64,000 nucleotides of DNA from an uncultured virus (IMG/VR IMGVR_UViG_3300008120_000124) (IMGVR_UViG_3300008120_000124); one strand, 5' to 3'; numbered from the stretch's first letter, positions 3,946-54,678 are shown. Notes: a model not told the origin generated them from the sequence alone. A program made the numbers and translations.

Positions 3946-3967
3946 TGGTGTTCTTCACCACTATTAT

Positions 3968-4881: not shown

Positions 4882-4895
4882 TCGTGGTATAGAAG

Positions 4896-5035
4896 CCTTC
4901 ATTTTAACTTTTGCCAGAAAAGAGAAGGATACAGGGTCCCGCCCTAGTATTTAAATTACAGCGGGAAAAACTGATAACAGTCGTTTATGGACCCGGTTCC
5001 CTAGTCGTAAGATTCAGGGAACTTCCATAACGGCT
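4896..5035 (+). ncRNA. structured spacer / tRNA leader RNA (unassigned)
   Basis: Hairpins CCTTC..GAAGG and TCCCGC..GCGGGA, then a long stem AGTCGTTTATGGA..TCCATAACGGCT enclosing GTTCCCT-AGTC-GTAA-GATT-C-AGGGAAC (GNRA loop). Confidence 0.45.
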
Positions 5036-5039
5036 TTAC

Positions 5040-5132
5040 GGGGGCTACAGTAGCTGGGTACTAACCGATCTTCAAAATCGCTGAACACGCCCTTCCAAAA
5101 GGCGTGCGGGGGTTCGATTCCCTCAGCCCTTG
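5040..5132 (+). tRNA. opal (UGA) suppressor tRNA, anticodon UCA, long variable arm
   Basis: Acceptor GGGGGCT 5040-5046/AGCCCTT 5125-5131, discriminator G5132. D stem AGTA/TACT. Anticodon arm CGAT-CTTCAAA-ATCG (TCA at 5072-5074). Variable arm CACGCC/GGCGTG. T arm GGGGG-TTCGATT-CCCTC. Confidence 0.9.
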
Positions 5133-5147
5133 CTAAAACTTAATTTT

Positions 5148-5447
5148 ATGTGGATAAAAACTTCACTATTAATGGCTGAAGGGGATTCTTTAGAAGAGAA
5201 TTCCTTTTTTGAAATACCAATATGGATAAATACGTCTCAAATAGTTACTATTAGAAAGATTGTAAAAGACACAGACGTTCCAGATGACTTAAAAAGATAT
5301 TCTGCTATCTCTACTACGGATGGTAATACTTACTACCTTAAAGTACAAGCAGAAAATCTACTTAAAATGATCAATCCTGATAACGATGGTGGTATAAGTA
5401 TAGAAAATGATACGCCACCAAAACCAACCTTAGACACAAGTATATAA
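5148..5447 (+). CDS. hypothetical protein
   Basis: ATG 5148 just after the tRNA (the track's TTG start lies within the tRNA); 99 aa. Confidence 0.65.
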   Translation: MWIKTSLLMAEGDSLEENSFFEIPIWINTSQIVTIRKIVKDTDVPDDLKRYSAISTTDGNTYYLKVQAENLLKMINPDNDGGISIENDTPPKPTLDTSI

Positions 5448-5584: not shown

Positions 5585-5591
5585 ACTCAAA

Positions 5592-5822: not shown

Positions 5823-7419
5823 ACAAGTTACGTTTAAAGAAGAAACAAGAGAAAAATTACTTAAAGGTGTAGAAAAAATTTCTAATGCTGTTGGGTCTAC
5901 ATTAGGACCAATGGGTAAGAATGTAATAATCGAAACTCCCTATGGAGCAACTACTGTAACTAAAGATGGTGTAACAGTTGCTAAACATATAGCTTTAGAA
6001 GACCCAGTTGAGAACTTAGCTGTGGATATTCTTAAGCAAGCTGCTGCTAAAACTGCTTCTACTGCTGGAGATGGCACTACTACCTCAACTGTTATTGCTT
6101 CGGCTTTAGTACAAGAGGCATTTAAACTTATTTCTGTTGGTTATCAGCCCATAGAAATTAAAAGAGTCTTTGAGACTTTAAAACACCAGACTATTGTACA
6201 GCTTAATAAGTTATCTACTGGAGAACTTAAGCCACAAGATATTTATGATGTGGCTACTATATCTGCTAATAATGATTCTGACATTGGTGTCCTCATTCTT
6301 TCTGCTTATGAGTATGTTGGTACAGATGGTTTAGTGTCTATGGGAGAATCTAAGACAGGTAATACTTATCTTGAGGCTGTACCTGGAGTATCTATATCTA
6401 AAGGTTATGCTTCCCCTTATTTTATTACAGATTCCGCTAAAGGAGAAGCAGTTTTAGAAAACCCCCTTATATTTATTACTGATAATAAGCTTAGACACAC
6501 AGATGAAGTAATCCCAATTTTGGAGTATGCAGCATCTCGTAGAAAGCCGCTCCTTATTATTGCTGATGCTATTGATGGTCAAGCTCTACAGCTCCTTATA
6601 ATTAATAAGTTACAACAAAGAATATCCGTAGTTGCTGTAGAAGCTCCTTCTTATGGAGAAAATAGAGCGGAACTGCTTCAAGATCTTGCAGCTATAACCT
6701 CTTCTAATATATTTACAACAACAGATGCCTCTAGAGCAACCCTTGATGTTTCCCCTATTAATTTTGGTTCTGCAGAAAAGGTAGTTATCTCTAAAGATAA
6801 GACTGTATTTATTAATCCAGATAAAAACGCTGATAAGGTTGACCAAAGAGTTCAGTTAATAAACTCTAAAATGCTCCAAGATTCTGATAATCCTTATCTT
6901 TTACAACAGTATCAGAAAAGACTTGCGGATCTTAAAGCTAAAGTAGCAATTATTAATGTTGGGGCTGCTACAGAAACAGAATTAAAAGAGAAAAAAGATA
7001 GGGTAGAAGATGCTCTTAAAGCTATTGCAGCAACAATCGTTGAAGGTTATCTCCCAGGAGGTGGTACTGCACTTCTTTATGCTTCATCTAAGATAACTAC
7101 TGATGATCCTATAACAAAAGCATACGTTAATGCTATAAAAGAGCCACTTAGACGTATAGTTTTTAATGCGGGTAAGAGTCCAGATATGGTACTTGCTACA
7201 TTAGAGGCATCTACGGACACTAGTTTTGGATTCGATGCTAAAAGCTTTGAGTATAAAGATTTAAAAGCAGCTGGTATTATTGATCCAACTATGGTAGTTA
7301 CACAAGCAGTTAAGAATGCTGTTTCTGCAGCTAATATGATAATTCTTTCTGACACTGCGATGGTTAATGTAGATAGGACGCCCCCATATACTCCACCATC
7401 ACCAGACTATGTTCAATAA
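5809..7419 (+). CDS. groEL: chaperonin GroEL
   Basis: 536 aa; TLGPMGKNV, TKDGVTVA, AGDGTTT, GAATETELKEKKDRVEDAL, PGGG, GIIDP. Confidence 0.97.
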   Translation: MTPTKQVTFKEETREKLLKGVEKISNAVGSTLGPMGKNVIIETPYGATTVTKDGVTVAKHIALEDPVENLAVDILKQAAAKTASTAGDGTTTSTVIASALVQEAFKLISVGYQPIEIKRVFETLKHQTIVQLNKLSTGELKPQDIYDVATISANNDSDIGVLILSAYEYVGTDGLVSMGESKTGNTYLEAVPGVSISKGYASPYFITDSAKGEAVLENPLIFITDNKLRHTDEVIPILEYAASRRKPLLIIADAIDGQALQLLIINKLQQRISVVAVEAPSYGENRAELLQDLAAITSSNIFTTTDASRATLDVSPINFGSAEKVVISKDKTVFINPDKNADKVDQRVQLINSKMLQDSDNPYLLQQYQKRLADLKAKVAIINVGAATETELKEKKDRVEDALKAIAATIVEGYLPGGGTALLYASSKITTDDPITKAYVNAIKEPLRRIVFNAGKSPDMVLATLEASTDTSFGFDAKSFEYKDLKAAGIIDPTMVVTQAVKNAVSAANMIILSDTAMVNVDRTPPYTPPSPDYVQ

Positions 7420-9649
7420 CAGAGACTTTATAATAAAAGAAGTCCCTGAGTATCATCCTCTATCAATAGATTATAAAACATTTTGACGCGAACAGAAACG
7501 GCGTTGTATCGAAGGTTACTGGGCTGGCGGGACATTTGTTCCCCCAGCCCTTTACTATTATATAAACTTCCATACAATAAGGCTAAATAAATCTATTCAC
7601 TCATCTGTAAAGTCTTTTGGTAGACCTTGACTCAGGGATGTAGAATATAACTTTTTTAATTATTACACTGAAGCCCGTGGATTCTCTGGCTTTAAAGACG
7701 ATGATGAATACTCCTCTCATAGAATACTTTTAACAGATATAGATGATGATACCTTATTAAAGTATTATCCAAATACTATATCCTCCACAGGTTCTCGTAA
7801 AACTTACATTCCCGCGCGAAAGGCTTTATTCCAAACCTATGATTATCCCTTAGGTGCTCCTTTGTTTGAGAATAATCTACAGAATTTTATGCTACTTGGA
7901 TCTCGAGAGTCTGGTAAGTCTTATCAGGTATCAGGACTTATAGCACACAACTATCTTTTTGATGGAGCTACTTATTATAATGAAGAAAGTATAAAGTACC
8001 CCTCCCCAGCTGAGATATTAGTTGGTGCTGAAAAGTCAGATAAATCAGCAGATCTACTTAAAAAAACAAGGGATGCATTTGATTGGCTTCCCGGTAAAAT
8101 ATCTACTTTTGACAGGACCTATCCAGCTCCTTTTTCTAAAAGATTCAGGGGGTCTTGGGATGTTAATAAAGAGATAGTTGCTGAGTATAAAAAACGTGAG
8201 AATGGAGCTTGGATAATTGCGGGATCTAAGTCATCTATTAAGCATAGATCTTTTTCTGCTAACCCATTTGCAGCTCAAGGTACTCGACCTCTTCTTCTAG
8301 TATTAGAAGAGATAGGTATGTTCTCCAACTTAAAACAGGTTTACACAAATACGGTGGATAACCTTCGTAACGGTCTTAGGAAAACAGGTATGCTTATGAT
8401 GATTGGTACTGGTGGTGATATGGAGAAAGGAACTATTGATGCTGCTGAGATGTTTTATGAACCTAATAGATATGATATCTTAACGTTTGAAGATATATGG
8501 GAGCATAGGGGTCAAATAGGATACTTTCTCCCAGCTTATCAAGTTCTTAATGAGTATAAAGATGAGAACTGAGTTACAAATGAAGAGGCAGCTAAAAAAG
8601 CTCTCTTAACAGTTCGTAAACAAAAGGCTGGAGATTCAGGCGGTTCCGAAGCTTTAAATAAAGAGCTTCAATATCGTCCAATAGTTCCTTCAGAAATGTT
8701 CTTAACCAAGACTGCTAATATATTCCCAACAGCAGAACTTAGAAGACGTCTTTCAGAAGTGCAATCTCAAAAGATGGAGGATTACTCTAATAAAGTGACT
8801 CTGTTTTTTGATCCCGCCGCTAAAGTTTATAATGGAGTTAATTACGAAATAAATACTAAACTAACTGCTATAACAAGATTTCCTTACGAAGGAGATGATG
8901 TAGAAGGAGCGGTTATGATATACGAATTCCCAAAACTAGTAGATGATCATGTTCCAGAAGGAGCTTATATAATAGGTTGTGACCCTTATAAAGATGATAC
9001 TTCAACTGGTGGATCTTTAGCTGCCGTCTATGTTATGAAGACTAACAAGTATCCTTCCACTGTTGGATATTCAGAAATAGTTGCTACATATATAGGTAGA
9101 CCTTACCTAGGTAAAAATCAAGTTAATGAGACGTTATACAAACTCTCCTTGTTTTATGGTAATGCTAAAATATACTTTGAGAATAACGTAGGTAACGTAA
9201 AAGATTACTTTGATAAAATACGCCGTCTAGATCTTTTGGCTAGACAACCAGTTACTATTTTTAATAAAAAAGCTTCTTATGATACAGGGCCCCAGATTAT
9301 TTATGGTTACCCCTTATCAAACGATAAAGTTAAATGAGAAGCACTTCAATATGTTCGTTCTTTCCTCTTAGAAGAAAGAGGAGATAATAGACGCAATTTA
9401 GATGTAATACCCGATATAGGATTATTACAAGAATTAATCTCTTATAACCTCGATGGCAACTTTGATAGGGTATCTTCGTTAATAGGATGTGTTTTAGGTC
9501 TAGAAGAAATATCCAATCTTAGTCGCAAAAAATCCATAACCGATAAGGAGCTTTCTCAATTTGAGAAGGACTTTGATAGGTTATTTGTAAACAACACCAG
9601 ACTATTCAATGTACAACTTCCCAAAACAACGCCTTCCTTATTCACGTAA
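7409..9649 (+). CDS. terL: terminase large subunit; 4 in-frame TGA (7484, 7628, 8570, 9335)
   Basis: One frame from ATG 7409 to TAA 9647-9649 (746 aa) with only TGA interruptions. Walker A GSRESGKS, Walker B LLVLEE, nuclease IIGCDPY...GNFDRVS. Confidence 0.93.
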
Positions 9650-18384: not shown

Positions 18385-18403
18385 CCCATAAAACTACTCT
18401 ATT

Positions 18404-18997
18404 ATGTTTATACAAAGAAATACATTCTCTGAGTCCCTACTTAAAGTTGATGAACCATTATATAAAGTTTATCACGATTCTACACTTTATGGGGATGGAA
18501 CAAGAGCCAATCCACTAAAAGTAATTGGTGGAGGAGGAACTTCACTACCTGATCAAACAGGTAATATTGGAAAATACCTAACTACTGATGGCGCAACTCT
18601 CAGTTGGGCTACTGTAAATGCACTACCCTCTCAAACAGGAAACGATGGAAAATTCTTATTTACAGATGGAACGACTGCCACTTGAAGCAATCCTGTAAGA
18701 GGAATAAGCGCAACTGTTAATGACGCAAATATTACTCTGAATTTAACTAACGCAGAAATATTTAATCTCACTCTTAATGTCAGTACAACTATTAGTTTTA
18801 CATCTCCAAGATTAGGTACTTTTGTTTTTAGAATAACGCAAGATGGTACTGGCGGAAAAAACGTAACATGGCCTGTTAATGTAAAATGGTCCGGTGGTAT
18901 TGCTCCTGTATTAACAACAACTGCAAATAAAACCGATATCATTACTCTTATTTATGACGGTAATAATTTCTACGGTGCTTATGTACTAAACTTTTAA
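18404..18997 (+). CDS. fibre-type structural protein; 1 in-frame TGA (18683)
   Basis: Internal repeat GKYLTTDGATLSW versus GKFLFTDGTTAT* places TGA opposite Trp. The frame continues (QDGTGGKNVTWP...W.GG.APVL) to TAA 18995-18997, 3 nt before the next ATG. Confidence 0.85.
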
Positions 18998-26900: not shown

Positions 26901-27359
26901 ATGAATATAACTTTAAACAGTACTTGTTCACAAATAACAGTAACCTCAGCTATACTTTTAAATACAAATGTAGCCAATACATTAAAAGTTATTTATAAAG
27001 GAACTGAGCACACTGTTACCGTACCAACTAACATATCTACCTTTAACATACTTCCTACGCACGTGGGCATGACAGGTACTTTTACAGATGGTGTTTATAC
27101 TATATTTTTTAGGAACACACTATTAGGCGGTGCTGTTAAAGAAGATAGAGGTTGTGCGGTAAGTCTTTGTAGCACTAAGTGCTCAGACGATATGATTTCA
27201 TGGTACACATCTAAGAACTTAGATAAAGTACTTACTTACGAAGCTCTGAAGGTAGGACAAGATTGCGTTAGTTGCAACTGCTCTACCTTGGAAACACTCT
27301 TTAACGACCTACAAGAAAATGACACCAACACCTGCTCAAATTGCTGCTGCACAGTGTAA
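26901..27359 (+). CDS. Cys-rich structural protein
   Basis: 152 aa, many Cys in the C-terminal half. Confidence 0.65.
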   Translation: MNITLNSTCSQITVTSAILLNTNVANTLKVIYKGTEHTVTVPTNISTFNILPTHVGMTGTFTDGVYTIFFRNTLLGGAVKEDRGCAVSLCSTKCSDDMISWYTSKNLDKVLTYEALKVGQDCVSCNCSTLETLFNDLQENDTNTCSNCCCTV

Positions 27360-28707
27360 CTTTGTAAATGAGCTGGTAGCCTATAACAACTGTAAAAAAT
27401 ATAATATAGATTGCTGTTCAACTAAAGTAGAAGAAGCGTTTTATCTTAAGAAACTTGCTGAATCTGGATGCGATCTTGATTATGATCTTATCTGTCAGTT
27501 AGATCATCTTAATGTTACTATAGTAGATTGTACTCAAGATCCTACTTGTGAAGAGATGGCAGATTGGAGTATAAAGCAAATAAATGTTGGAGGAGATTAT
27601 TCAGTAATTTTAGAAAACGAATATGACTACTCTAATAAATTTGTTTTTAGCACTAACAACGATTCTACTTTTTTAAGTTCTACCGCCAATGTTGTTATAT
27701 CAAATGGATATGGCGAAGTTTCGGATAGTTACTCGATAGCTGGTGGTTGCAAATTAGTTAATGGTGTTTCTGTATGCTCGGATATTTACAAAACAGAAGT
27801 TTATTGTATACTGCAAAGTGCACCATTATCCAACTTCTATAGTGCTACAAGTTCTTGGGCAATACAATCTATTAGGCTTTGGAATGTTGGAACTGCTACT
27901 GGAACTGCTTTTGGTGGACCGCTTCAATACCAAGATGTAGATATTTCTCCAAGTAACATATGACCAGCCACTAAACCTGGTAGTACAGCTGCTCTTCCTG
28001 CAGACTTACTTTTAAGTAGTCCAAATTTAGCTAGCGCTTTAAAAAAGCAAATAGAGAACTTTGTTTGGGAAACTGATAAAGTTTCTCCAGGATTTAATAA
28101 CCAATTAAATATAAAACTTGATGTATCTGTTGTAGGAGATGTTTTGTACATTAAAACTGTATTTAAGCATAACCCAACTTCAAGTTGGTGGGGATTAAGA
28201 TCTGTAGCTTGGGCACAAAATAGTCCTTACGATTTAAGTAGTGTAAGGTTAGTTTTCCCCGGAGATTACTATAAAGATCTTTGGCACACAACTTACATGA
28301 GACATTCTTCTACAAAAGTGTATGATTCTCATGCGTTTACTAATGACTGTGCTCAAACATCTAATGTTGTAGTAGAAGGTTACATAACTCCTTATGTTAA
28401 TTATTGGGAAACTGACTTGAATAAAATTACTCTTCAGCAACCAACCCAACAATACAGCTCTAAAGTTGATGATGTTTTTACCACAAATGAAAATCTACTT
28501 ACAGAGAATATATTATCTTGTTACAAAACCACTTTAATACCCACAGTTGATAGCACTTATGCTAACTCTGTTAGCTGGTATAGTCCTTCTGGAACTATAG
28601 TTGGTTCTGGATCTGTTACGCTAACAAACCCTGTACAAGGAACATATACAGCAAAACTCACATTAGTTAATACTGGATGTGTTTTAGAAAAAACTATTGA
28701 AATATAA
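27319..28707 (+). CDS. Cys-rich structural protein; 1 in-frame TGA (27961)
   Basis: Track ORFs 27319-27963 and 28144-28707 are in the same frame; the intervening codons are open. 462 aa; C-terminal Ig-like GTYTAKLTLVNTGC. Confidence 0.8.
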
Positions 28708-30360: not shown

Positions 30361-31042
30361 ATCAGTCTTGGCTAGTTTGGCAATGATACTCGATGAAAAG
30401 TATTGAGATGAAGCAACAATGCTTGAGCATATCGCTAAAGGATTTTTACAAATGAATTTAGAGAATAAGTTTGAGCAGAAGACCGCTAAACTTGAAGTTG
30501 AAGAACATAAAACCACACTACCAAACGACTTAAAATATATAACGCAAATAGTAGTAGAAATAGATAATAAATACTACCCAATGCGTGCTACAACAAACCC
30601 CTACCATAATGGTGTTTGTGATCTTAAATTGCTAGTTCCTTGTCCAACTTGTAAATACGAGTATTCTATATCCCCTTCTGGAGTAGTTACTACTAACATG
30701 GGCACAGGAACTATTGTTATTTCATATCTAGCTAATCCAGTAGATGAGAACGGGGATCTATTAATTCCTGATGATGAGACTTTAAAAGAAGCTCTTACAC
30801 ACTATGTTCTTTATAAATACTGGATGACTAAGTACATGATGAAGGAAGAAGGCTCTGAAAGTAGAATGCAATTTCACTTAAAGATGTGGTCTACATTATC
30901 TAAGAAGTCTATGAATCTTAATCTTCCCACAATAGATGGTCTTGAGAATATAAAGAATATCAATAACCATTTAGTTCCAAGAAGTAATAGATACTCACAG
31001 CTTTTCCAAACATTAAACAATCAAGAAAATGTCGGATTCTAA
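30341..31042 (+). CDS. tail ring/tubular protein; 1 in-frame TGA (30404)
   Basis: ATG 30341, MKTISIKSVL...DEKY*DEATMLE, in frame with track ORF 30419; YLANPVDENGDLLIPD. Confidence 0.75.
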
Positions 31043-34000
31043 TACATTTACAAAAGGTATAAATACGGATCTTCATCCAAAGTTTCAAGAAGACGGAACT
31101 TACCGATTCGCCTTAAATGCTGTATTAGAAACTAAAGATGGAGAACTTCCTTCCATATCAAACGAAGCTGGAAATTCTGCTTGCAGTATAAACTTTCCAG
31201 TAAACAAAAAAGTAATTGGACACGCTTTAACTGAAACTGATGAGGTTATAGTGTTCTTATACGATCCTGCAGGACAACATGAAATAGGAAAGTATTCAGG
31301 TTCTAACTGTCAATACACCAGTATAGTAATTGCTTCTTGCTTAAACTTTTCTGATAAGTATCCTATAAACGCTTTATATAAAGTAAGAAACGGATGTGAT
31401 GGTTATATATACTTTACAGATAACTACAATGATTATCGAGTAATGAATATAACTGATGTATTCCAGTATTTAGGAGATGGGGCTTTAATTTGCCCAAAGA
31501 TAGAATTTTCTAGAGATTACACAATTCCTAACATTACCTTAGACACCATAGAATCTAATAGTGCTGGAGCTTTAGAAGTAGGTGTGTATTACTTTGCAGT
31601 TAGGTTTTTAGATAAGTATAATAACTCCACTAACTGGGCAAATGTTACTAGACCTGTAGTTATAGGAAACGGTACTTATTCTTACTTAGATGACGATAGT
31701 ACTGTTAATATGTACGATGGTGGTTCAAACGATATTAACTCTGATTATTACGTTAAGCCTCAGCAAAAGCAAATAAAGTTTACAGTAAGTTCTGCTGATA
31801 ATATATTTGATTATTATCAAATAGCAGTTATTAAAAGAACAACAGATGAAGGTAATATCTCAACAGTAGATGTTCTTCAACCACAGCCTTGGAATGGTTC
31901 TACAGAAAGTTTTGTTTACACTGGTAATCCAAATGATGTTGTTTATCAATCAGCGTTAGATGATATACTAAATGACAAAATAAAGATTAAAAAGGTATTA
32001 GCTCATACATTTGAAACTAATAGACTCTTTTTAGCAAATACTTCTGGAGATTATAGAGATTACTCAAAGTATCAAAGATACGCTTCTAAAATAAAAACAG
32101 AGTTTTATAAACCTCTTTCAGGATATGACGAAGTAGATAATAAAACTAGGCAGGGTGTTTATTACTTTGACGAAGGCTCGTTAATGGAAGATGAAGTTTA
32201 TTCTTTAGGAATAGTATATGTTTTTAGAGATGGAACCGAGTCTCCAGTATTTCATATTCCCGGTAGGCCCGCTAATATAACTATTACTGGTTCTAATCCT
32301 TTAATAGGAACGAACGGTGTTACTACAGATGGAGCTAGCTGGGACACTGGAACAACAACTGTTTATGGTGATAATATCTCTACCAACCTTAGATGGAAAC
32401 AAATATCTACTGCAGCAGCACAACCACATGCAGGTTTCTCTTATATTAGAGGTTATATGGGTTATCATGAAACTCAAACTACTTATCCTTACGTAGAAAC
32501 TTGCGATAACAATGCAGATGGATACTGGGGAAGAGATTATTGGAATAACTTAATAGAGCCCTACAATACTGCAATAAGACATCATAGGATGCCTGGAGCT
32601 GAAATAAGAGACTCTTTAAACAATGTTACTAATTTTAAAGTAGGGCTTTTGTTTTCAAATGTAAGTTACCCAGCTAATGAAAATATAGTTGGGCACTACT
32701 TTGTTTACGGAGATAGAACATTTGAGAGAACAGTTTTGGCTAAAGGAGCTTTTGTTCCTCTTGAAGTTCAAGAAGGAGAAGGTGTTACTAGAAGGTACGA
32801 ATTTACTGTTTATCCAAATAATTATAATGGAAATTATAATGGGGGATCTTTAGCTCCTGCTGATTTTAATTGAACTATAAATAATGGTATAGGTATTAGA
32901 GCTAATGAGTTTGCTTTTATTTCTTCAGAAGGTGTGTTTAAAGAAAAGTCTTTTGATGGAGCTTACGTTAAGTTTGAGAAAATCTATTTAGATAAAAACT
33001 GGGTAAGTGCAAACTCTGATATTTACAGCGATGCTACTAAGTTAAAAGAGTTTAACTCTAAAGAAAGTTATGATGTAAATGTCCACAGTCGAAGAACTTA
33101 TAGGTACTTTAATAAATACAATCTTCCAACTGTTAGTGGTATAAACCATAATATTCAGAATAATTTATTTATTAATAAAACTTATCAAGGCGCTGTAGAA
33201 GGAAACTCTGCTTACGAACATGTAAAAGATTGGACGTTTGTTAATAATAGTGTTAGCATACCTCTTCATTTATTAAAGTTACAAAGCGGTACTGAAGCAC
33301 TTGCCCCACTAGGAGATTGGAGAAACAAAGCTTTCTTTGGAAGTATAAGACAGTTTAAAGATGTATTCTCAAACTTATATACCATTCAGTATAAAAAGCT
33401 TCAGAACAAAACTCTTTACGCCACAAATTTAAATACTAGTTTTATTGTACTAGGAGGAGACACCTCAGTATCCAGACTTTCATTAATGGAATCCTCTTTT
33501 AAGCAAACTGGAATTGTTTCTGATACCACACCAACTACTTTAGATGCTTATAGTGTTTTCTTTTCTTTCCCAACTCAAGATACATACTTTAATCCAGAAT
33601 TTAGAAGTAGCGCTAAAGATCAGAAGCTAGATTACTTTAAAAATAAGAATGCATCTACTACCGCTGATAACTTAGAGGATATGTTTTCTTACGTTTTAAG
33701 AAAGTTATATTCTCCAGACGTAAAAGATGTAATTATAAATCCAGAGATATATAATTATAATAATTCTTTTTCATTCTTAGATGGACTAGAAATAAAGTAC
33801 CCAATAGCGTTTAATTATAAGTTTTGTAATCTTTGTATAGAAGATCATCCATACAGAATATGGTATTCTCAAAAAGACGATAACACTTCTTTAGAAGATA
33901 AAAGTAGGATAATACTTCCTAATAATTATACAGACGAGTTAGGAGGTAATTCAGGACCTGTAACAGATTTGTTTGTTAGTTTTAATAAACTATACGCAAC

Positions 34001-35282
34001 TACTCCAAAGTCTATTTTCTATATACCGACTAGACCTCAAAATATAGAGACTGATGTTAATACTATTTATCTTGGAACTGGAGAAGTCTTGGGAGTTCCT
34101 CCACAGGAAATGAAAAACTCAATGAACGGATTTGGTGGTCAACAGCATTGGTCTTCTAGATTACTTACCGAATACGGTGCATTTTATATGGATTCTTTTT
34201 CAGGAAGTCCTATTATGCTGGGAGGATCAATAGAAGATATATCAATGTCTGGTATGAGAAATTTCTTCCAAGAAAATGGGGAGTTTAATTTACCTAAGCA
34301 GTTTAAGTTATTAACAAACCAAGAATATCCATTTATATCTCATGTGTCTCCAGTTGGATTTGGATATAAAAGTGTTTACGATCCTAGGTACAAAAGATTA
34401 ATTCTTACTAAGAAAGATCATAAAATAAAAGCTAACTGGATTTCTAAGTTTCTTTATTACCCAACTACAACTGATAATCCCGGATCTGTTTCTGTTGCAA
34501 ACGATAGACTTTGGTTTAATAACCATTCATTTTACTATAAAGATAAAACAGGAACTAACAATAAAGTATCATTAGAGGATTCTTATTTCTTTGAGAATAA
34601 ATCTTTTACATTATCTTACTATTTCTTAAGTAAACATTGGGTATCTTTCCATTCTTACATACCTACGTATTCTTTTTCAGATTCTAATTCATTTTACTCT
34701 CAAAAAGATTATACTAATATCTATAAGCATGGAGAGTTAAATTACCAAAAGTATTACGATATTAAATACCCGCACATTGTTGATGTAATATTAACAACGT
34801 CGCCTCCAATTATAAAAACAGCAGGAGCAGTTGTACTTTGCGCATACAGTTCATCTGTAGATGTAAACTCAAATACTTTCCAAACAGAAACACCTTATAG
34901 TAAAGTAATATTTTATAATTCCTCTCAATCATCTGGAGTTCAGTCTTTAGTTGCGCCATCTCCTTTTCAACTAGATGTTTCTAATGGAGTAGCTTTTACT
35001 AAACTTACAGATAGACAGTGAAGAATAAATAATATTAGAGATTTAACTGTATCTAATAACCAACCTATTTGGGCATCTGATTGGAATTCTATTCAAAGCT
35101 CACCATTTTCTTATATAGATAAAATACCCAACTTAGCAAATATAAATTATAGTAAATCTTTCTTTAATTCTAGCAGATTAAAAGACTATTATTTAGGAGG
35201 AAGATTTTTCTTTGAGCCATCTACCGATGTTAAAGTTTCTTTAGATTTGCTCATGACTACTACCCAAAATAAACAACGATAA
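31029..35282 (+). CDS. tail muzzle/stabilisation protein; 2 in-frame TGA (32871, 35019)
   Basis: One frame of 1417 aa to TAA 35280-35282; FTKGINTD..P...YRFALNA N-terminus; TDRQ*RINNIRDL. Confidence 0.85.
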
Positions 35283-41367: not shown

Positions 41368-41382
41368 TAAATAAAATTATAT

Positions 41383-44300
41383 ATGCCAAAAATTAGCGAT
41401 TTTATATCACCTGCTACGTCAGCTGCTTTTAAAGAACCGGCTTACTTAGAAAAAGGTGAAAGAATGAACTCTGCAAATACATTTTTAAATAATCTATTTG
41501 GAAATTACTATGACTCAGGTCTTAGAGATTACGAAGACCAACAAAATCTTAGGTTTAATAATCAAACAGGATTAAATACATTTTTTAACTTTGCAGGAAA
41601 TCTAGGTTTAAGAACTTTAAAAGCTCCAGTCGCTTTAGCTACTGGGGTAAGTTCTTTAGGTCATGGAGCAATGAATTTATTAGATGGAAATCCTAAAACT
41701 ACTTTTTCAGAAGGATACGATGCAAATTTATTAAGAGATCTTAATGAATCTTTAGGTTATTCTATAGATGACGCTTTTCCAACTTTTAGAGAAATGGGTT
41801 TTGACGAAAGAACTTTTATGCAACAGCTCAGTGATCCTGGGCAATTGGGCACTTCTTTAAGAGAAACGATAGGCATTTCATTTGAAAGTCTTGTTGGAGG
41901 AGCTTGGTTAGGAAAAGTAGGATTCGGAGCAAGAATAGTTTCATCTTTAGCTAAACCACTTAGTTATACAAAACTTTTTCAAACACTACGTCCAAATAAT
42001 TATGCTAAAATTGTTAGTGTCTTAGATGAAAGAATTGCATCAACTTTGTTAAGGACACATGAATCTGGTGCTGAAGCTCATGACGCTTGAAAAGCTACTG
42101 TTTCTAAACTAAAGGCAGATAGGGACGCTGGTAAAAATGATTACACTGACGAGCAAATAGCTCAAATAGCAGATAAAAATTTTGGTAATGTATTTGCCTC
42201 TGACATGGTGTTGGGGGCAATTACAGATACAGCTTTTATTAGGTTATTTAGACCTTTATTATCTAAAGGGGCTGTTGCTAGCAGAGCTAACAAGTTTGGA
42301 TTAAAGTTAGCAGATTCCCCAACATTAGATAATTTTATAGAAGCAGCTCCTTCAAAAGCAACGGGCTTTAAAAAATACATGGAAGGACGAGGAGGAGATT
42401 ATATGAAGTTGGGTAAAGAACTCGCTATCCAAGCTTTCTCTGAAGGTATGGAAGAAAACATACAGTATTCCAATCAAAAAGTAAATGAAGGTAACAACTT
42501 TAAACAAAGCTGGTTAGAAAACGCTTACTCCGCACTTAATAATTTAGTGTCTGAAGGTATATACATGACGGATGAAGATCGCATAAAAGCAGTAGGTGCC
42601 GGTGCACTTATTGGTGGTGGATCTGCTATTGCCACTTCTTTACCTGTTGTTGGAAGACCATTTGGGGGAGGTGTTTTGGGAGAAGCAAAAAACGAAAGAC
42701 TTCAAAAACAAAAAGCTAAAGAAGACCTCAACAAAGCTTACACAGATTTTGTGAACACTTCTTTAGTACAAAACGAAGACGATACGAAAGGAAAACTTAC
42801 AAGGGAAGAACAACCTGATGGCACTGTTAAATACACTCATCAAGTCGGCGACACAAATACTGAAATAGATGAAGAGCAGTATAATACTATTGCTGAGCAA
42901 GTGTCTTTAGATGAAGATGGTAATTATGTAATACGTGGGGGAGTAAAACTTGATGATCAAGGAAATGTCATGAAAGACATGGTAAAAGCTGCTGAGTTCA
43001 CAGCTAACATGAGAGTTCAAGGAGAGTTAGATAATTTAATAGATTTGGAAGCTATGAAACAAGAACCAGATCCAATTAAGTTAAAGTTGTACGAATTAGA
43101 AAAACTTTCTAATTTAGCTCAAACTGCTTTTAAGAGTGGAAGCACTGATTTGCTTATGAAAAAACTCGAATCTTTTAAAGACATGGGCGAAGCTTCACTT
43201 AAAAGATTTGGAATAGATTCCCCACAAGAAGTAAATGATAGGATAGAGTTTTATAAGGAACATGTAGCTAAACTTGAAGCTAATTACTTACAGACTACAA
43301 ACGGCATGGTTGCTCCAGTTTATGGAGAAAAAGATGAAGCAAGATTTCAAATGCTTAAAAATTATGCTGGAGGAATTGGAAATAGATTAGTAAATCTTTA
43401 TTCTTTAGTTGAAGATTTAGATAGGCAGATATTAGATGTATCTTCAAAGATACCTAATAAACAAAAAGCTGGTTGGATAATGAATGCTTTTTCTACAGAT
43501 AATTTAGAAGGTAGAGAACAACAAAGTCCAAAAACTTCGCCTGAAGAAGCTAGACTTGCAGAATTAGTTACTAAGAAAAAAGACCTCAATGATGCAATTG
43601 AAGACTTAGGTAAAGTTTATGATAGATTAACTAATCCGAGAGAAGGACTTAAAGAGTACAATAAATTAGTATCAGCTAATAAACTTTCTGAGTATAAAAC
43701 ACTTAGAGACGGCCCAAAAACTTTTTTAGCTAACGATCAAACTACACCGCAAAGTTTTAAATCTTTTGTCGCAAAGCGTTCTAACATGCTTAGGCAAAAA
43801 AACAAACTGGATACAGCAAGAACTATGTTTTATGCTGATCACTTAAACGATTTAATAAATTATATCAAACTAAATGAAAATAGATTAGAAGATGTAATAG
43901 AGTCGGTTATGGATGTTTATGATAAAGTTACTAAAGAAGGTACCTTTATATATCCAGATCAAGCTTTAAAATTAAAAGATGCGATTAACACAACTCTTTC
44001 TCTTATAGAACAAAAGGAAAAAGAACTTCTTGTAAGGGGAGGTATGACTGAACAAGATTCTTTATTGGATCTTGAAGATATGCTAGTAAATGAAAAAGCG
44101 GAAAATACTATAACAGAAGAAGATGCAAAATTGTACTCTGAGCTTATAAGTTTTAGAAGAGCAAAAAATAAAATGAGAGATTTTAAAGAAATGCAATCTA
44201 AAATAGACTCTCAAATATCAATTTATGATATATCTAAATCTGACTCTGACTATGTACAAGATGTATTAGATGAGCTTCTTCAAGGTCCAAAAAGGCTTTT

Positions 44301-47300
44301 TGAAATTGCTGAGTACGAAGATGGAAGTATTTCTCAATTTTATGACGATGTTTCTGCTGTTGAAAAACAATTAAATTTTGCTAAAGCTCTACACGAAAAA
44401 GCATTATCTAAAATAGAAGAAAAACCTTATAAGGAAACTGCTAAAGAACTTGAAGATATAATTAAAGATTTAGAGATACTGCTCGAACTTACAAAAGAAA
44501 ATGTAAGAAATATAGAACTTAAGAATAAGAAAGAAGATCTTCACTATGCTGAAGCTGTGTTATCTTTTGCCGATTCGCTTAATACTAATGAAATAGTTAT
44601 TACTTCTGAACAAACAGAAGATACCGCAGTAGAAGAAGCGGCCATAAGAAAATCATGGCAGAAAGAATTAGACGCATTAAAGAGCAGAGAGTTGGATTCC
44701 GTAAAGCGTTCTACTAAAGGAACTCCTATTAATAAAGATAACCCTAATTCATCAAAAGTCGGAGAAGAATTTGATGAGAAAATGATAATTATTGTTCAGC
44801 AATCTCTATTAGCTGACGATTATGACCCAAAGATTGCAGAAAATAATGGAGATGGTTATACTATAATAGAAAGAGTTATTGAGTATGGGGAGATGACGGA
44901 TGGGAAACTATCCAAAGCCCCAGTTGTAAGATTAAAAATATTCAACAATAAAGCGGATGCGGACGCCTACTTGGATAATAGAAAACAGGAATTAGATAGC
45001 AAAATTGGTACGTCTCGACAATACGCTAAGATTAACGATGAATATAATGCAAAATTACAAGCTTTAAAAAATAAAGAGACTGAAACAGAGAGGCCTAAAA
45101 CTAAAGTAATTAAAGATGTTTCTTTAGCGCAACTTATAGAATCAGATCCTATACTAGGTTCTATGGCTGTTATGGATTTATTAACCGAAGATGAAAGAGC
45201 TGATGAAATAGCTGAAGCTTTAAGAGGCACCTTGTCAAAGCTTTTAAATGGTTTAGATTTTATCAATGATATAGCAGGAACACTTTCAGCTACTCCAGCT
45301 GTGTACGACGACTATATAAAATCGGAAGCTGTAAAGAACCCATTGAGAGGTATTTTTCAAGTTTTAAATGTTATAGAAAAAAAGGAACCGGATAAAAGTG
45401 TATTAGGACCGCTAATAGAATTTAATAAAGATTATGATGTTATTAAGTTTAAAGAGAACATTAAAAACTATAACGGAAAAGTTCCTCAGGAAACTTTACT
45501 GGCCCTTATAAATCTTCATGCTGCTTTTGTTGGAATAGCACAAATACAAGATGCTCAAGAATCTGGATTTAGTCACGTAGGATTTTTAACAAAGATTAGA
45601 GAATATTTAAAAGCTAATCCGACTGCTCCAGTTCCTTCATCTTCTCAAATTAGAGTAGTTCGAGAGCTTGTCACTTTTGCTTCTTCTAGCGTTATTTCCG
45701 ATGCAGAAATATTTCAAAATGGAGCAGCTTTAAAAGCTCCAGCTGGAGCTGGAAAATCTTTAGTAGTTTCCAAACTATTTAAATATGTAATGGGGTATGC
45801 TAATGAAGAAATTGCAAGTGCGGCTGCTTATGATAAAGCTGCAAAAAATATTGCGGAATCATTGGGACATCCAGATAATCCAAAGAAAATAACGGATTTA
45901 ACCACTGAATTAGAAAACGGAACATTGTCCCCAAAAGTAAAATTTATTATAGTAGATGAAGCTGGGGCTTTAAATAGGGGGGACATAAACAATTTTGTTA
46001 GAGCTGTAAATAAGTATAATAATACAACTAAAGGCAACAGAGTTAAATATTTATTTTTATACGACCCTAATCAACCTGTTTCTGGAAATATATCTAAGCC
46101 AGCTTTAGATGATAATTATATAGCAAACTTTGTTACTACTGAACAAGAATATTATGAAGGAACTGAAGAGGTTAAAGCTGAATATAGAAAAGGACAAAGA
46201 ACTCCTAAAGGAGATCCCTTAGGACATTCTGTAGCATTATCGCAAAATTTAAAACAAATAACACCCCTATCTACTACGTATCGTTCTGGCGTTTCTGAAG
46301 TTGTTGATTTACAAAATGCATTTAAATCTGACACGCCAATTAGTCAAATACCAACCGCGTCTTCTTTAGACCCATCGGTTAGTATGATTAATATATTTGG
46401 TACTTATGCAGAAGCAGGTACAAGCATTGTAAAAAAGTTTGCTGAATCTAAGGCAGCTAATCCACAAAGAAGTAGAGTTATTATTGTTGGTAACGAAGAA
46501 AAATTACAGCAGTATAAAAAAGCATTACCTGACGCTGACGTTCTTTTAGCGCCAAGTGCTATGGGAATCACGGTTGATGAGGTATACGTTGATATATCTG
46601 TTGAAGATAATAAAAACTTTTCTAATCCAACAATATACAACCAATGGATGTATGCAGCAACCTCAAGAGCAACATCATATGCGCACCTTGCTAACACTAA
46701 AGGAGCAACACATTTTGTAGATCCTAAAGTAGCTCCCTATCCTAAAAAAGATAATTTATCGGAAGAAGCTATAAAAAACTTAGATGAGCAAATAAAAGTA
46801 CTCTCAGAAATAACTGGAAATGTTTCTGTTGATATTACTAGACCAGCCGCTAAAGAAGAGTCAGTTAAACCTAGTGAAGAAAGAACTCCAGACGAAACTC
46901 CAGACGCTCCGGGAGAAAATAAAACTGCTACAGATAACGAAGGAACTTCAGTGGGTTTTGATCAACAACCACAAGAAGAATCTGGACTCCATGTAATAAA
47001 TGAACCAGTCGTTATTAATTTTGACAATAATTTACCACCCAGTACTCCACCTACAGGAGTTTCTCAAAAGTCTCAACCGTATAATTTAGAAAATCCAGCT
47101 TTTACTATATTTGAAGGAAACGAAGATTCCGGTATACCTCCACTAAGTATTGGAGATGAGTTAATGGTCTTTATAGATAATTCTAGAAAGGCTACTGGAG
47201 AAGAGGCAAAGCGTGTTGTTTTGGTAAAAAAAATAACAGGGAGTGATAGCGGGAACACTTACTATCAAATTGTTGGAGTTATTAACGACAAAGAACTTGG

Positions 47301-50300
47301 AGATTTCGAGAGAAATGTTGGTATAAACACTTCGAAACTTCCAGAATTTACGTTACAAAATACAAACTTGTATAACATTTATAAAATAAATGGACAAGTT
47401 ACTGGTCATGAAACATTGTACGTACAAGAAGGAAGTCAAGGTATAAAATACACATACGATGGTAAACCACAAGAAGACTTAGCAGATATGCTAGATTCTG
47501 ACGGTAAAATTTCTAGAGCACCACTACTTGAAAAATATATAGACCAAGTTTGGGGGAGAGATGCTTTAGAAAACGCTGAAGAAGTTATTAAAAACTTTTC
47601 TAGGTATTGTAAAATAATAGCTTTTAAAAGTATAAACGATGCAAGAAAAGTATTTGGAAAAGACATACCTGCAAGTAAATTACCTAGACCTGGAGTACCT
47701 TATTTAATAATACAAAACATCAAGTTAAAAACTGGGAATGTTGTTAAGCCTCAGTTCATACAATTAGCAACAAAACCAGTTAACAGTAATGACGAGAAAT
47801 ACAAACCGCTTTACGACTTTATAGATAAGTTAAAACAGTTTGAAGATCTTTTACTTAAATCCGCTTACTTACCTGATGTTTATAGAAAGATAAAAGCTGG
47901 CGAACCTGTTGTTTATCAAAACATGCAGTTTTTTCCTATGCATACTTTAGTTAAAGTTTTTTCAGATGCTCATCACGATGAATCTATGAAAACAATAACT
48001 TTGTTAAGTAATAAACAAGCAGGTTTTAAAAATCTTTTTCCAGACTTAAAAAGAGAAAGCATTGATCCAAAACTATTAGAACTTGCTTCAGAACTTGACT
48101 TTTTAATTCACGGCGATTTAAATAGAGTTAAAGACGACAAAGGAAAATGGAAGCATGACACAAGGGCTTTTAAAGGGCCTGCTCAAAGTGTTTTTAATGA
48201 TATAGGATCTCAAAACTTAGTAGCTTCTATAGATCAAGGGGAGAGAGCTGGTAAGCTAGTTTTACTTAGAAATTATAAAGTCAACTATACAACTACAGCT
48301 AATGGTACACAATCAAATACAAGTATTGAAGCTGCCACATTACTGGGACCAATAACTTTTATTAGAAGAGATAACAGAGGAGCAAATAATCCTTTAATTT
48401 CAGAGGATTTGAAATCTAGATTAAGAACTTACGCGGCGTCTTTAGAACAAAGAGGCTTAGAGCAATCAGCTAGATATAAAGCTATTGTTAATTATCTTAA
48501 TGTTATATCTGATCCAACAAAAATACCTCACTCTAATATTTTAACTAGTGAAGATTTATCTGATATTTTCATAGGGTCTAAAGATAGCGATGGTAATCTT
48601 ACAAAAATATCTGGAGGATTTGGATTAAGAACTCCATCTCCTAACAGTGTAAATAATAAGGATACTAACATTGAGAATCAACCCGTAAATCAATTTGTGA
48701 GTCATTTATCTAGAATAGATAAAACTAGAATAATAGTAGCTAAAAATAAAAACGCTGTCCCGACTGAACAAGTTGAAACTGTAAGAAGTAGAAAATACGC
48801 TTTATTAGTTGCTGCTGGAATAGACACTATTTCTGCCGACACTATAGAAGAAATGTTTCCACAGGAAGAAATAGCAGAATTTATATCCACATTAAAAAGT
48901 AACACTTTAGAAGAGGCTCTTGAAAAGTTTAGAAAGAACGCTAAAGAAAAGTTGTATTACGAAACGGAAGTAAATAATAAAATACTTTCAGCTGTACAAA
49001 GTAGGTTAGGAATAAAAACTACTACTAAGGAAATGGTTAAACAAGATTTAATTGATTCCGTAGGTGTAATAGATAACCTTAAACCTTACGCTTCAATACC
49101 AACACCTTTTTTAAGGGCTTCCGTTTTAATTAAGCTTTTAGGAGTTACAGCTGTTTCTCCCAAAGATTTGTTTCCATTGCTAAGTTTTGTTAGAAAAAAT
49201 TACGGGGCAAATAATTATAGAGGGGTTGGATTTGCAGAAGAATTTTTACAACTAGTAGTTAAATATAATACAGACGTTTCTAAAATAATTCCTAGAATAA
49301 ACGAAATTAGCGCGGCTTATAAAGAAGTTGCAGACGAATTAGGGATACCATATAGACCTCTTTTAATTGACGAAAATCTACCTCAAGATGTTATTTATCA
49401 AATGATTGTTGATGGTTTAATTTTCACATTTTTAGAAGGTGGCAACATAAATGGTCAATATTTAAAAGGTGTAAGTGAATTTGGTAGAGAAGCTAGGCAA
49501 AAGCATTTGGATAATCAAATAAACTTAGCCGCAGCTTTTACTAATATAGTTGATAACACAGTTGTAAAAACAGAGGATATTAATACAGTAATAGAAGAAA
49601 CTCCTGACGATAAGATTGAACAAAAAGTAGAACAAGTAGTGGCGGCTGCTGAAAATAAAGTAGTTAGATTTGCTGAAAATTTGTTAGAATGGATTAACAA
49701 TAACGCAGACGCTGAGGCCGCAGATATTATGCAAGAGGCGTATAATATTGATGACGATTTAGCAATTGACTTTATAAATAACCAAGACGCGTATGATAAC
49801 TGGGTATCATTTTTAAAAGACGTTATTAAACAAGGAACTCTGAGTAGATCTAAAAGTTTTTTAACAGAAGATATAGGAACCCCACTTAGTATGAAAGAAG
49901 TGGAAAATCTTGTAGATAGATATACGCCTAGAAGTTTTTTCTCTATGTTAAGAGAAATTGTTTCCGGAAATGCTCCAAGAGAACTTTTTAATATAGTTGA
50001 ATATGGTAAACTTGTTAATAACCAAGGCAAACAAGTTTGGGGGTTATATAAAAATGGCGTACTGCACTTTGCTAAACTTGCTTCTGGAGGCGTTTCTTCA
50101 AAAGTAGTTAGGCACGAGTTATTCCACAAAATATTTTGGGAATATCTAAAACCTTCTGAACAAATAGCAGCTTTAGCTTTAGCTCAAGAAAAGTATGGAA
50201 ATTTAAGTCCAGAGGCTTTAGAAGAAGCACTTGCTGAAGAATTTGAAGATTTTGTTGTTACCAAACGCAAGTCATTATTGTCTAGGCTTTGGGAAAAATT

Positions 50301-53300: not shown

Positions 53301-54678
53301 TGCCATGAGAGCAAAAGGGGTAGACCAAATGGTTTTCGCTTCTGCTGTTAAAATTGGTAGCCCTGCTGTAAAAGCTAAATTAGACGAAACTGGTAGAATT
53401 ATTGCTTCAAGTTTAGACGAGAAAGCTATTGTTAATATTAATAATGAGAACTTACGTTTCCAGTTAAATCCGGCAAAGAATGTTGAAGGCAGCGTTGCTA
53501 ATAAGTCTCAAGGTACTGCTATGATGAATACCAATGGTAAAAATACAGCAGAAACTTTTGAAATGCATAAAGCAAACGCATTTATAATAGAAAATGGATT
53601 AAGAGGTTTATCTAGAAAACTAAGGCTTACTAGAAAAGGTGGTGTTACAAAAGGCACTGAAAACAAAATACGCAGGATGCTTACCTCGTTACTTCAGGGA
53701 CTTCCGGGAGCAAGAGATGTATACGAAATGCTCAGTTTGGGAACAGGAAAAAATAAGGTTCCATTAGACATGCCTTTGATTGGAGATAGAGTACTTTCCA
53801 ATTTATCTTCAATATTTACAAAAGCAACTACTGGCTTTAGATTCCCTGGTTCTAAACTTGTTCTTCAAGCAGATTTGGGACCAGTGAAAATTGATGGTGT
53901 AATGCGTAACCTTAAGTGGAGAGATGAAAATGGATTTTGCGAAGTTATACTACCTGAAACATATAGACCATATATGGAACAAATTAAAGATGGTATAATT
54001 GGTTTCCGTATCCCCACATCAAACTACCACTCTTTAGTTCCACTTAAAGTTGTTGGTTTTTATCCAGTTCCACCAGGTTCTAAAGGAAACGTTATTATTG
54101 CCCCATCGTTAATAGTTTATTATCATGGATCTGACTACGATATTGATACATTATTTGTAGCTAGAAAAGATTACCCAAATGAAACTATAAACTTAAACGA
54201 ACTTATTAAAGGAATAGATCCAGAACATCAAGATGATCCTAAATTAATAGTTGAGGCTAATGAACCTTATGGATTTAAAAATAACGAATTAATTGATTTT
54301 GATGGTTACAAACTATATGAGTATTTAGATAAATACATATTAAAGGTAAATAAACAATTAGAATCATTAACTAAACAGTTACAAGGAGCATCAGAACTTC
54401 AAAAAGAAGCAATTGAAAATGCTATTGAAGATAAAGAAAAAATATTACAAAGTCTTTCCGATATAGCTGAGTACGCTGCTAAAAACTTTATTGTTCATAA
54501 TTTCTCTACGAATATGAGGAACATGAAAAATAGAAAAGATCTTCTTACACCTATTTCATTTGATAAAATAATAACTCTTAGATCTGAGCTTAAAAAAGAA
54601 CTTAGCGAAAAATTAGATGATGATAAGTTCCTACAAACTCTTGAAGAAAGTGGTTTAATTAAACAGATATGCCAGTAA
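41383..54678 (+). CDS. giant virion protein: SF1 helicase-like domain, zincin motif and RNA polymerase catalytic part; 1 in-frame TGA (42088)
   Basis: 4431 aa with readthrough. APAGAGKS 45736-45759, IIVDEAG about 45946-45966, YAATSRA 46651-46671; HELFH 50113-50127; GFRIPT 54001; GSDYDID 54127-54147. Confidence 0.85.

Follow-up and report, generated by a model that had tools for sequence, protein, structure and literature searches.

How host synthetases charge the suppressor tRNAs of phages that recode stop codons is named as an open question in a passage of a preprint on such phages (Borges et al., 10.1101/2021.08.26.457843). The question is raised in a concrete form by a stretch of 64,000 nucleotides from an uncultured virus (IMG/VR IMGVR_UViG_3300008120_000124), here called the window, which refers to the whole stretch. 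At positions 5040-5132 it encodes a tRNA with the anticodon UCA and, between its anticodon arm and its T arm, a long additional arm. Comparisons with PHROGs, Pfam and related large terminase (TerL) genes identify the source of the window as a crAss-like phage. We find that the tRNA is the phage's own opal suppressor, since a UCA tRNA and in-frame TGA codons at tryptophan positions occur together in this genome, and that the long arm carries a CCA loop resembling the anticodon loop of tRNA-Trp. We therefore describe it as a tRNA-Trp that bears two tandem anticodon arms.

The second arm and the anticodon hairpin of tRNA-Trp

The elements of the tRNA are the following.

5040..5132, + strand: whole suppressor tRNA(UCA), 93 nt up to the discriminator G5132, with helices kept by compensatory changes in relatives
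5040..5046, + strand: 5' strand of the acceptor stem, GGGGGCT, forming 7 bp with 5125-5131
5049..5062, + strand: D arm, with a 4-bp stem (5049-5052/5059-5062), the 6-nt loop GCTGGG and three compensatory pairs
5065..5081, + strand: decoding arm (hairpin A), with the loop CTTCAAA at 5070-5076 and the anticodon TCA at 5072-5074
5086..5106, + strand: second arm (hairpin B, the "variable arm"), with the stem CACGCC 5086-5091 / GGCGTG 5101-5106
5108..5124, + strand: canonical T arm, with the stem GGGGG/CCCTC and the loop TTCGATT
5125..5131 and 5132, + strand: 3' strand of the acceptor stem and discriminator G73, read from the sequence

The tRNA has five helices, compared with the four of a class I shape with a short variable loop. 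All the features listed by the initial annotation are present in the sequence: a C5065/C5081 mismatch on top of a hairpin A stem of four pairs (5066-5069/5077-5080), a long arm in a variable region of 26 nt (5082-5107), G73, two wobble pairs at the outer end of the acceptor stem (G1:U72, which is G5040:T5131, and G2:U71, which is G5041:T5130), and CTA at 5133-5135, directly after G5132, so that the CCA end is not encoded. Positions 8 and 9 of the tRNA are A5047 and C5048. Missing from that annotation was the content of the second loop. The stretch 5092-5100 reads C-UUCCAAA-A, with a C5092/A5100 mismatch followed by the seven nucleotides TTCCAAA at 5093-5099, in which CCA (5095-5097) stands in the register of an anticodon. 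The combination C34 C35 A36 in a 7-nt loop, absent from the decoding arm with its UCA, is therefore found in hairpin B. The loop agrees at six of seven positions with the anticodon loop of E. coli trpT (CTCCAAA), and the window tRNA further shares with trpT the discriminator G73, the acceptor pairs G3:C70, G4:C69 and G5:C68, and the 7/5 architecture of acceptor and T stems, which bears out the proposal of a UGA-reading suppressor on a Trp-like body. It differs from trpT in having an additional UCA hairpin, placed after position 26 and before the CCA arm, in G1:U72 and G2:U71, in A8/C9 and in the 6-nt D loop.

The structure is beyond chance and the gene is real, because its helices are retained via eight compensatory double changes in two relatives with 78% TerL identity (L011/L025). 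Three of these changes lie in the D stem, one in the anticodon stem (G:C to A:T), three in the variable stem and one in the T stem. The same two relatives retain every helix as well as the C:C mismatch, and together with three population contigs they have G1:C72 instead of G1:U72. A population variant (run X16) carries two compensatory pairs in the stem of hairpin B, at 5089/5103 and 5090/5102. Minimum free energy folding of the single sequence found the acceptor, second-arm and T helices and missed the weak anticodon stem (z = -0.71), and is uninformative here. A blastn search of the tRNA against E. coli genomes gave no match.

To place the second arm in a wider setting, we scanned viral contigs for long-armed UCA tRNAs, using a pattern in which the anticodon and T loops alone were fixed and no CCA hairpin was demanded. 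At least 115 stretches matched, of which 80 loci were listed, and the counts from this and the other pattern scans refer to the matches listed. About 45 of the 80 are not tRNAs, and 33 are UCA tRNAs according to ARAGORN, comprising 23 of the 7/5 type with G73 and ten of the selenocysteine (Sec) type with 8/5 helices; our own parse added one more 7/5 UCA tRNA (L109), giving 24 in all. Every one of these 24 long-armed 7/5 tRNAs has a hairpin with the 7-nt loop N-U-C-C-A-(A/U)-(A/C), in the forms CUCCAAA, GUCCAAA, UUCCAAA, UUCCAAC, GUCCAAC and GUCCAUA, and their acceptor stems and D arms are widely different. After setting aside one near-copy of the window tRNA, U33, C34, C35 and A36 of the second loop are each found in 23/23, A37 in 22/23 and A38 in 19/23, and G73 is present in all 23 aligned members. 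For pairs 2-5 of the hairpin B stem, 89 of the 92 cells are paired, and each position shows four to five different pair types; shuffling the partners leaves 44.5 +/- 4.0 cells paired, and none of 2000 shuffles reaches the observed number. These pairs were counted by our own parse; a MAFFT alignment misplaced the second loop of the window by one column and shifted four 5' ends. Among the matches listed, TCCAA does not occur in the long arm of any of 105 unique phage tRNA-Ser(UGA) controls (Fisher p = 7e-26), and the loop NUCCA(A/U)N occurs in none of the ten Sec-type UCA tRNAs.

The spacing of the second hairpin is likewise that of a normal anticodon arm. Its loop lies 8-10 nt ahead of the T stem in 23/23 listed tRNAs (8 in the window, 10 in E. 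coli trpT). Most of the listed members also begin their acceptor stem with AGGGGC, as trpT does. When a script removes hairpin A together with its linker, ARAGORN returns tRNA-Trp(cca) of 70-77 nt for 20 of the 23, the window copy included. The window tRNA shows the full two-armed design, namely 7/5 helices, G73, a UCA arm beside the D stem and a second hairpin with a CCA loop, and this design is common to the window and 20 listed sequences from other lineages. The long arm, which had been likened to arms of the Ser/Leu/Tyr/Sec type read by seryl-tRNA synthetase (SerRS), is instead a copy of the tRNA-Trp anticodon hairpin.

A further shared trait concerns the top of the decoding arm. The unpaired 27:43 reported by the initial annotation is real, being kept in L011/L025, and a non-Watson-Crick 27:43 is commoner in the listed suppressors (opal, 13 of 23; amber, 29 of 42) than in the listed tRNA-Ser controls (20 of 105). 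The parallel that had been drawn with Blastocrithidia is weak. An unpaired 27:43 has been linked to UGA decoding in the tRNA-Trp of that organism too, but there a shortened stem enables readthrough by a near-cognate CCA anticodon, whereas the anticodon in the window is cognate to UGA.

A tandem duplication of the anticodon arm could have left the second hairpin behind as a neutral relic, and the architecture does resemble a duplication. The loop of this hairpin is invariant, however, its stems covary while the remainder of the tRNA diverges, and two compensatory pairs have arisen in its stem within the population variant described above. We therefore regard such a relic as extremely improbable.

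UGA as a tryptophan codon

The window contains ten firm in-frame TGA codons beside 176 TGG, so that TGA makes up about 5% of its Trp codons. Open reading frames (ORFs) of at least 80 aa that end in TGA under table 11 behave accordingly, with eight of ten continuing in frame, from the next codon, into another long ORF. The genes concerned are the following.

7409..9649, + strand: large terminase gene (TerL) and client of the tRNA, in-frame TGA at 7484, 7628, 8570 and 9335 with no further stop
18392..18997, + strand: ORF, in-frame TGA at 18683
27256..28707, + strand: ORF, in-frame TGA at 27961, with TGG in an identical context in the relative G003
31017..35282, + strand: virion structural protein gene, in-frame TGA at 32871 and 35019
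41371..54678, + strand: giant ORF of 4435 codons, in-frame TGA at 42088
54855..58658, + strand: ORF, in-frame TGA at 55281

The TGA at 41191 (within 39394-41367, + strand), which ends a 594-aa table-11 ORF, is probably an eleventh sense TGA; readthrough would lengthen that ORF by 58 codons, to a TAA directly adjoining the next ORF.

What UGA stands for can be read from relatives, because relatives, where they are conserved, show TGG at these positions and never a Ser codon. We compared TerL codons across 30 related viral-contig loci. Site 26 is covered by 25 of them, 12 with TGG and 13 with TGA. At site 643, 21 of the 30 have TGG, 8 have TGA and one has CAA. Site 74 varies, with TGA in 12, Asn in 8, TGG in 3 and Leu in 3 of 26. 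TGA and TGG are exchanged between close relatives (L006, L009), and at none of the seven sites that have relatives is a Ser codon aligned with TGA. Three sites align with other residues in relatives. Site 388 of TerL (TGA 8570) is mostly Gly GGN (17 of 30, with TGA in 6, TGG in 1, ACA in 3 and TAY in 3), site 32871 is ACT in G003, and site 55281 is ATT in a relative of 39% identity, so that comparison at 8570, 32871 and 55281 is uninformative or weakly contrary to Trp. Sites 18683, 35019 and 42088 have no informative relative. Further relatives sought for 42088 and 55281 yielded near-identical records and the one 39% relative already mentioned.

The tRNA and the recoded codons also occur together. 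Among the TerL relatives with sufficient upstream DNA, a UCA tRNA is present in eight of nine that have TGA in TerL and in none of four that lack it. A missed UCA tRNA was sought in L012, L013, L014, L018, L021, L009, L024, L028 and L029, and none was found. L012 (56% TerL identity) is the exception: its TerL contains six in-frame TGA codons, the syntenic position (L012:3218-3304) is occupied by a tRNA-Leu(UAA), and no UCA tRNA is found within the 13.6 kb covered. In the near-identical record G002, a family-A DNA polymerase gene (PolA; L032:1-1488) and several neighbouring ORFs contain in-frame TGA, and the recoding in this phage is therefore not limited to late genes.

These data bear directly on the possibility that SerRS charges the tRNA, in which case UGA would mean Ser or a mixture of Ser and Trp. 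The window tRNA does possess the two features by which a tRNA-Ser may be recognized, a 26-nt long arm with a 6-bp stem and G73. A G2:U71 pair and 5' linkers of 1-6 nt are atypical of tRNA-Ser, and the former is found in the window tRNA and the latter in 22/23 members of its family, the remaining one (L043) having 10 nt and no stem. Arm size is the main identity element of tRNA-Ser in a review of identity elements (PMC9976931), and SerRS is described as accepting many odd long-armed tRNAs (Mukai 2016, PMC5389517). Since SerRS reads the size of the arm and not its sequence (PMC9976931), the conservation of the loop would be unexpected under such charging. The complete lack of Ser codons at TGA sites, and the presence of TGA at invariant Trp positions of TerL, also stand against it, as does a 2025 preprint in which all 13 tRNA-UCA analysed by mass spectrometry, unnamed in the text, inserted Trp in E. 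coli extract (10.1101/2025.10.30.685624 / PMC12636597). Charging by SerRS is accordingly very unlikely in our judgment, and the choice between Trp and Ser, which the initial annotation had left open, is largely answered in favour of Trp.

The resemblance to selenocysteine tRNA

The expectation that automatic tools would label this hybrid as tRNA-Sec proved right. ARAGORN calls it tRNA-SeC(tca) at 5040-5133, and its best Rfam family is tRNA-Sec (RF01852), with 36 bits and E = 1.2e-5 on 401 bases. That score lies below the gathering score of 47, and across the whole window Rfam gives no tRNA-Sec match at gathering level; the general tRNA model RF00005 gives nothing at E <= 0.01 in the near-identical G002. 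A genuine selenocysteine tRNA, dependent on SelA, SelB and selenocysteine insertion sequence (SECIS) elements, would share with the window tRNA its UCA anticodon, long arm and G73, and C5039 is able to pair with G5132 as an eighth acceptor pair. That pair is lost in L011 (A/G), and the branch is 7/5 rather than 8/5. Bacterial tRNA-Sec has a D arm of 6 bp with a 4-nt loop, as opposed to 4 bp and a 6-nt loop in the window. Pfam scans of 36 ORFs from elsewhere in the genome and 29 from the window showed no Sel genes, SECIS elements not being searched for, and TGA falls at Trp positions of structural genes. We assign next to no probability to a true tRNA-Sec.

The comparison with tRNA-Sec does place a limit on the motif itself. 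The sequence UCCAAAA is likewise present within 9-nt variable loops of genuine 8/5 tRNA-Sec (L352-L381) belonging to Caulobacteraceae, Phenylobacterium and some other metagenome-assembled genomes (MAGs), probably as a lineage coincidence. A scan of genome contigs that demanded TCCAAA gave 31 matches, 27 of them UCA tRNAs by ARAGORN, and most of those 27 are true 8/5 tRNA-Sec with a 9-nt loop, mainly from Caulobacterales. Six two-armed 7/5 tRNAs were also present, on MAG contigs that carry the labels Coriobacteriia (two), Clostridiales, Treponema, Bacteroides and Bacilli; since these contigs were binned, their labels do not point to a host.

Amber counterparts and published suppression data

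If the second loop has to do with the amino acid, suppressors that insert a different amino acid would be expected to carry a different loop. Recoded phages are reported to insert Gln at TAG and Trp at TGA (Yutin et al. 2021, PMC7886860; Borges et al., 10.1101/2021.08.26.457843). Among long-armed CUA tRNAs of viral contigs, 36 of the 41 unique ones listed have G73, and 30 of the 41 have U-(C/U)UG-A, the Gln anticodons CUG and UUG, in the second loop; the same motif is found in 2 of 105 listed tRNA-Ser controls and in none of 23 listed opal tRNAs. The second loop tracks the amino acid reported to be inserted, as CCA goes with TGA-to-Trp and CUG/UUG with TAG-to-Gln.

Activity data are available for related molecules in the 2025 preprint cited above (PMC12636597), in which 213 suppressor tRNAs of phages were put through a screen in E. 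coli extract. We classed its table entries tRNAUCA-1 to -30 by eye, and 13 of the 30 are two-armed. In that table all 13 two-armed tRNA-UCA give values of 26,699-58,947 on the UGA reporter (relative fluorescence units, RFU_TGA), as compared with the other 17, of which two are above 28,000 and 15 fall within 5,437-11,695; CUA tRNAs on the same reporter give about 5,000-7,500. By eye, tRNAUCA-3, -6 and -20 look identical to three sequences from our scans (L094, L101 and L040, respectively), and the window tRNA itself is not among the 30 rows compared. The main text of the preprint does not discuss the extra arm, and the word "variable" appears in it twice in an unrelated sense. The two phage tRNAs (AP1, HF2) that depend on their own phage tryptophanyl-tRNA synthetase (TrpRS) are single-armed. 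One entry of the table, the natural tRNACUA-44, combines a CUA anticodon with a Trp-type body and a GUCCAAA second arm, and is listed with an RFU of 56,217 on the TAG reporter (PMC12636597).

A possible role of the second arm in charging

Taken together, we favour, with some reserve, a reading in which the phage's own opal suppressor uses its UCA arm to read UGA and delivers Trp, while hairpin B would serve as the CCA identity element for the host TrpRS. The identity elements of bacterial TrpRS are given as G73, C34, C35, A36 and the acceptor pairs G2:C71, G3:C70 and G4:C69, with A1:U72 and G5:C68 as minor ones (review PMC9976931). With C34 changed to U, one of these elements is lost, and the spare CCA hairpin would restore it. 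The molecule would then be a tRNA-Trp body with two tandem anticodon-type hairpins, of which the 5' one has been changed to UCA. Hairpin A (5065-5081) would decode UGA on the ribosome, and the 3' hairpin (5086-5106), which retains the cognate loop U-CCA-A and the normal spacing of an anticodon arm to the T stem, would present CCA to the host TrpRS together with G73 and the G3-G5 acceptor pairs. With CCA presented by hairpin B, charging would be independent of the decoding anticodon.

That TrpRS reads the second arm, and the manner in which it may do so, we infer from sequence comparison. In engineered tRNAs with a pseudo-anticodon, the tip of the variable arm (V-arm) is noted to be far from the CCA end (Mukai 2020, PMC7590224). 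Because of this distance, and because the spacing of hairpin B is canonical, we favour a swap of arms, in which hairpin B would act as the anticodon arm on TrpRS and hairpin A would do so on the ribosome. The weak 27:43 pair of hairpin A may be a hinge between the two arms. A more general proposal would be that stop-codon-recoding phages use such a device widely, with one arm for the ribosome (UCA or CUA) and another with the cognate anticodon (CCA, CUG or UUG) for the synthetase, perhaps through a swap of arm stacking under the D stem with the weakened 27:43 as hinge; we put this forward tentatively, at a little under even chances.

Several points weigh against the favoured reading. Recognition of hairpin B in place is sterically doubtful, given the distance of the V-arm tip from the CCA end, and the loop of hairpin B in the window is closed by a C/A mismatch. 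The acceptor end of the window tRNA has G1:U72 and G2:U71 where trpT has A1:U72 and G2:C71. Two single-armed UCA tRNAs are active in the table of PMC12636597, so the second arm is not strictly needed, and UGA suppressors are tryptophanylated in E. coli according to work cited in the Borges preprint (10.1101/2021.08.26.457843). The UCCAAAA motif alone is not diagnostic, as it is also found in true 8/5 tRNA-Sec. The pattern scans, with anticodon and T loops fixed, list part of all matches, and because the family members are related, the counts overstate their independence. Both the charging and the expression of the window tRNA are predictions.

The activity of the single-armed tRNAs (2 of 17), the tryptophanylation of UGA suppressors in E. 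coli and the distance of the V-arm tip from the acceptor end would all be accommodated if the second hairpin were conserved for a role other than recognition by a synthetase, with Trp charging achieved by G73, the acceptor stem and a tolerated UCA alone. The hairpin could be a decoy for anticodon nucleases of the host or a shield against them, a target of enzymes that modify anticodon loops, or a processing signal, or it could help the tRNA to compete with release factor 2 (RF2) or to bind EF-Tu or the ribosome. A role blind to amino-acid identity does not predict a loop that follows the amino acid inserted, and is disfavoured for this reason: CCA is found in 24/24 opal and CUG/UUG in 30/41 amber tRNAs among the matches listed, with no crossover. 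The strong activity of all 13 two-armed tRNAs, against 2 of the 17 others, in the same table also stands against it (PMC12636597). We consider a non-synthetase role unlikely, though worth keeping in mind.

Another use for a complete anticodon arm would be decoding itself, with both arms active on the ribosome and the tRNA reading UGG as well as UGA. Hairpin B does amount to a complete anticodon arm, and its distance from the T stem is canonical. A U34 anticodon could already read UGG by wobble, however, so that a second decoding arm would add little, and we know of no precedent on the ribosome for an extra hairpin at position 26. We give dual decoding very little weight, and return to charging by the host TrpRS as the favoured role of hairpin B.

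The phage and the surroundings of the tRNA gene

The large ORFs of the window all lie on one strand. PHROGs matches among the 18 large window ORFs scanned include terminase, portal and major head protein, Pfam matches include crAss tail ring proteins 1, 2 and 3/4, and the nearest cultured TerL is that of the Cellulophaga phage phi14:2 (35% identity). Judged from the overlap of the window with the near-identical 90.6-kb record G002, from which the rest of the genome was read (L031, L032), the genome is about 101 kb. L031/L032 hold a replication module with PolA, a DnaB-like helicase, primase, uracil-DNA glycosylase and others. Genes for aminoacyl-tRNA synthetases, release factors and Sel proteins were sought, and none was found in Pfam scans of 36 ORFs from the rest of the genome and 29 from the window, or in the PHROGs scan of the 18 large window ORFs. 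Freshwater metagenome runs of several studies contain contigs with this stretch.

The surroundings of the tRNA hold several other features. A phage transfer-messenger RNA (tmRNA; Rfam RF00023, 62.9 bits) lies at 3968-4216 on the + strand, 0.8 kb upstream of the suppressor tRNA, and ARAGORN predicts for it an unusually long tag of 30 residues ending in LVYA. Contigs of an RNA run cover 3976-4111 and 4186-4215 in this region, and adapter letters follow after 4215, at or next to the predicted 3' end of the tmRNA. A chaperonin pair stands around the tRNA and tmRNA, with a Cpn10-like ORF (Pfam) at 2615-3115 (+) and GroEL at 5809-7419 (+; PHROG, 4e-130). A blastn search of 3900-5200 against phage records gave thyX as the only match. 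Between thyX and the tRNA, at 4930-5035 (+), inverted repeats are seen by eye (CCCGC...GCGGG and GTTCCCT...AGGGAAC), and in population contigs this region lacks one nucleotide at 5015 and is altered at 5016 and 5020. A promoter and terminator scan of 3700-5900 found sites no more numerous than in shuffles. In the RNA run X20 none of the contigs lies on 5040-5131, which is uninformative about expression. One X20 contig of 200 nt starts exactly at 5132, the last base of the tRNA, and continues downstream, a weak hint of cleavage at the tRNA 3' end.

Relation to known systems and significance

Phages in which TGA means Trp (code 4), crAss-like ones included, have been described before (Yutin et al. 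2021, PMC7886860; Borges et al., 10.1101/2021.08.26.457843). The window resembles them in having a phage UCA tRNA and TGA aligned with Trp in terminase and structural genes, in a host presumed to use the standard code and, without a synthetase of its own in the scans, presumed to supply the TrpRS that charges the tRNA. The passages of those papers on recoding do not mention the shape of the tRNA; the present phage adds a tRNA with a second CCA hairpin and a sparse recoding that includes PolA. The library of PMC12636597 includes two-armed members of the same family, with strong UGA suppression in its table. Closest in design logic is an engineered system, in which a pseudo-anticodon placed within the V-arm of a suppressor tRNA, an anticodon-arm mimic like that of the window, raised aminoacylation and specificity (Mukai 2020, PMC7590224). 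As described there, that system is synthetic, uses an allo-tRNA (9/3) with HisRS as target, and requires an extra anticodon-binding domain fused to the enzyme, whereas the natural tRNAs would meet the host TrpRS in unmodified form and, judging by their spacing, could place the second arm where a true anticodon arm lies. In the literature searched, whose coverage lies outside subscription journals, no paper on a natural two-armed design was found, and this engineered pseudo-anticodon is the nearest work.

If the proposed role of hairpin B is correct, it would explain why tRNA finders miss such genes or label them tRNA-Sec, and it would provide a design rule for engineered suppressors that remain good substrates of anticodon-reading synthetases. 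The two-armed tRNAs would constitute a new class of tRNA architecture and of identity element, in which the identity of the amino acid is uncoupled from the codon read. For the phages themselves, a spare cognate arm would answer the question of how host synthetases charge their suppressor tRNAs, in the case of TrpRS and of glutaminyl-tRNA synthetase (GlnRS), both of which read the anticodon.

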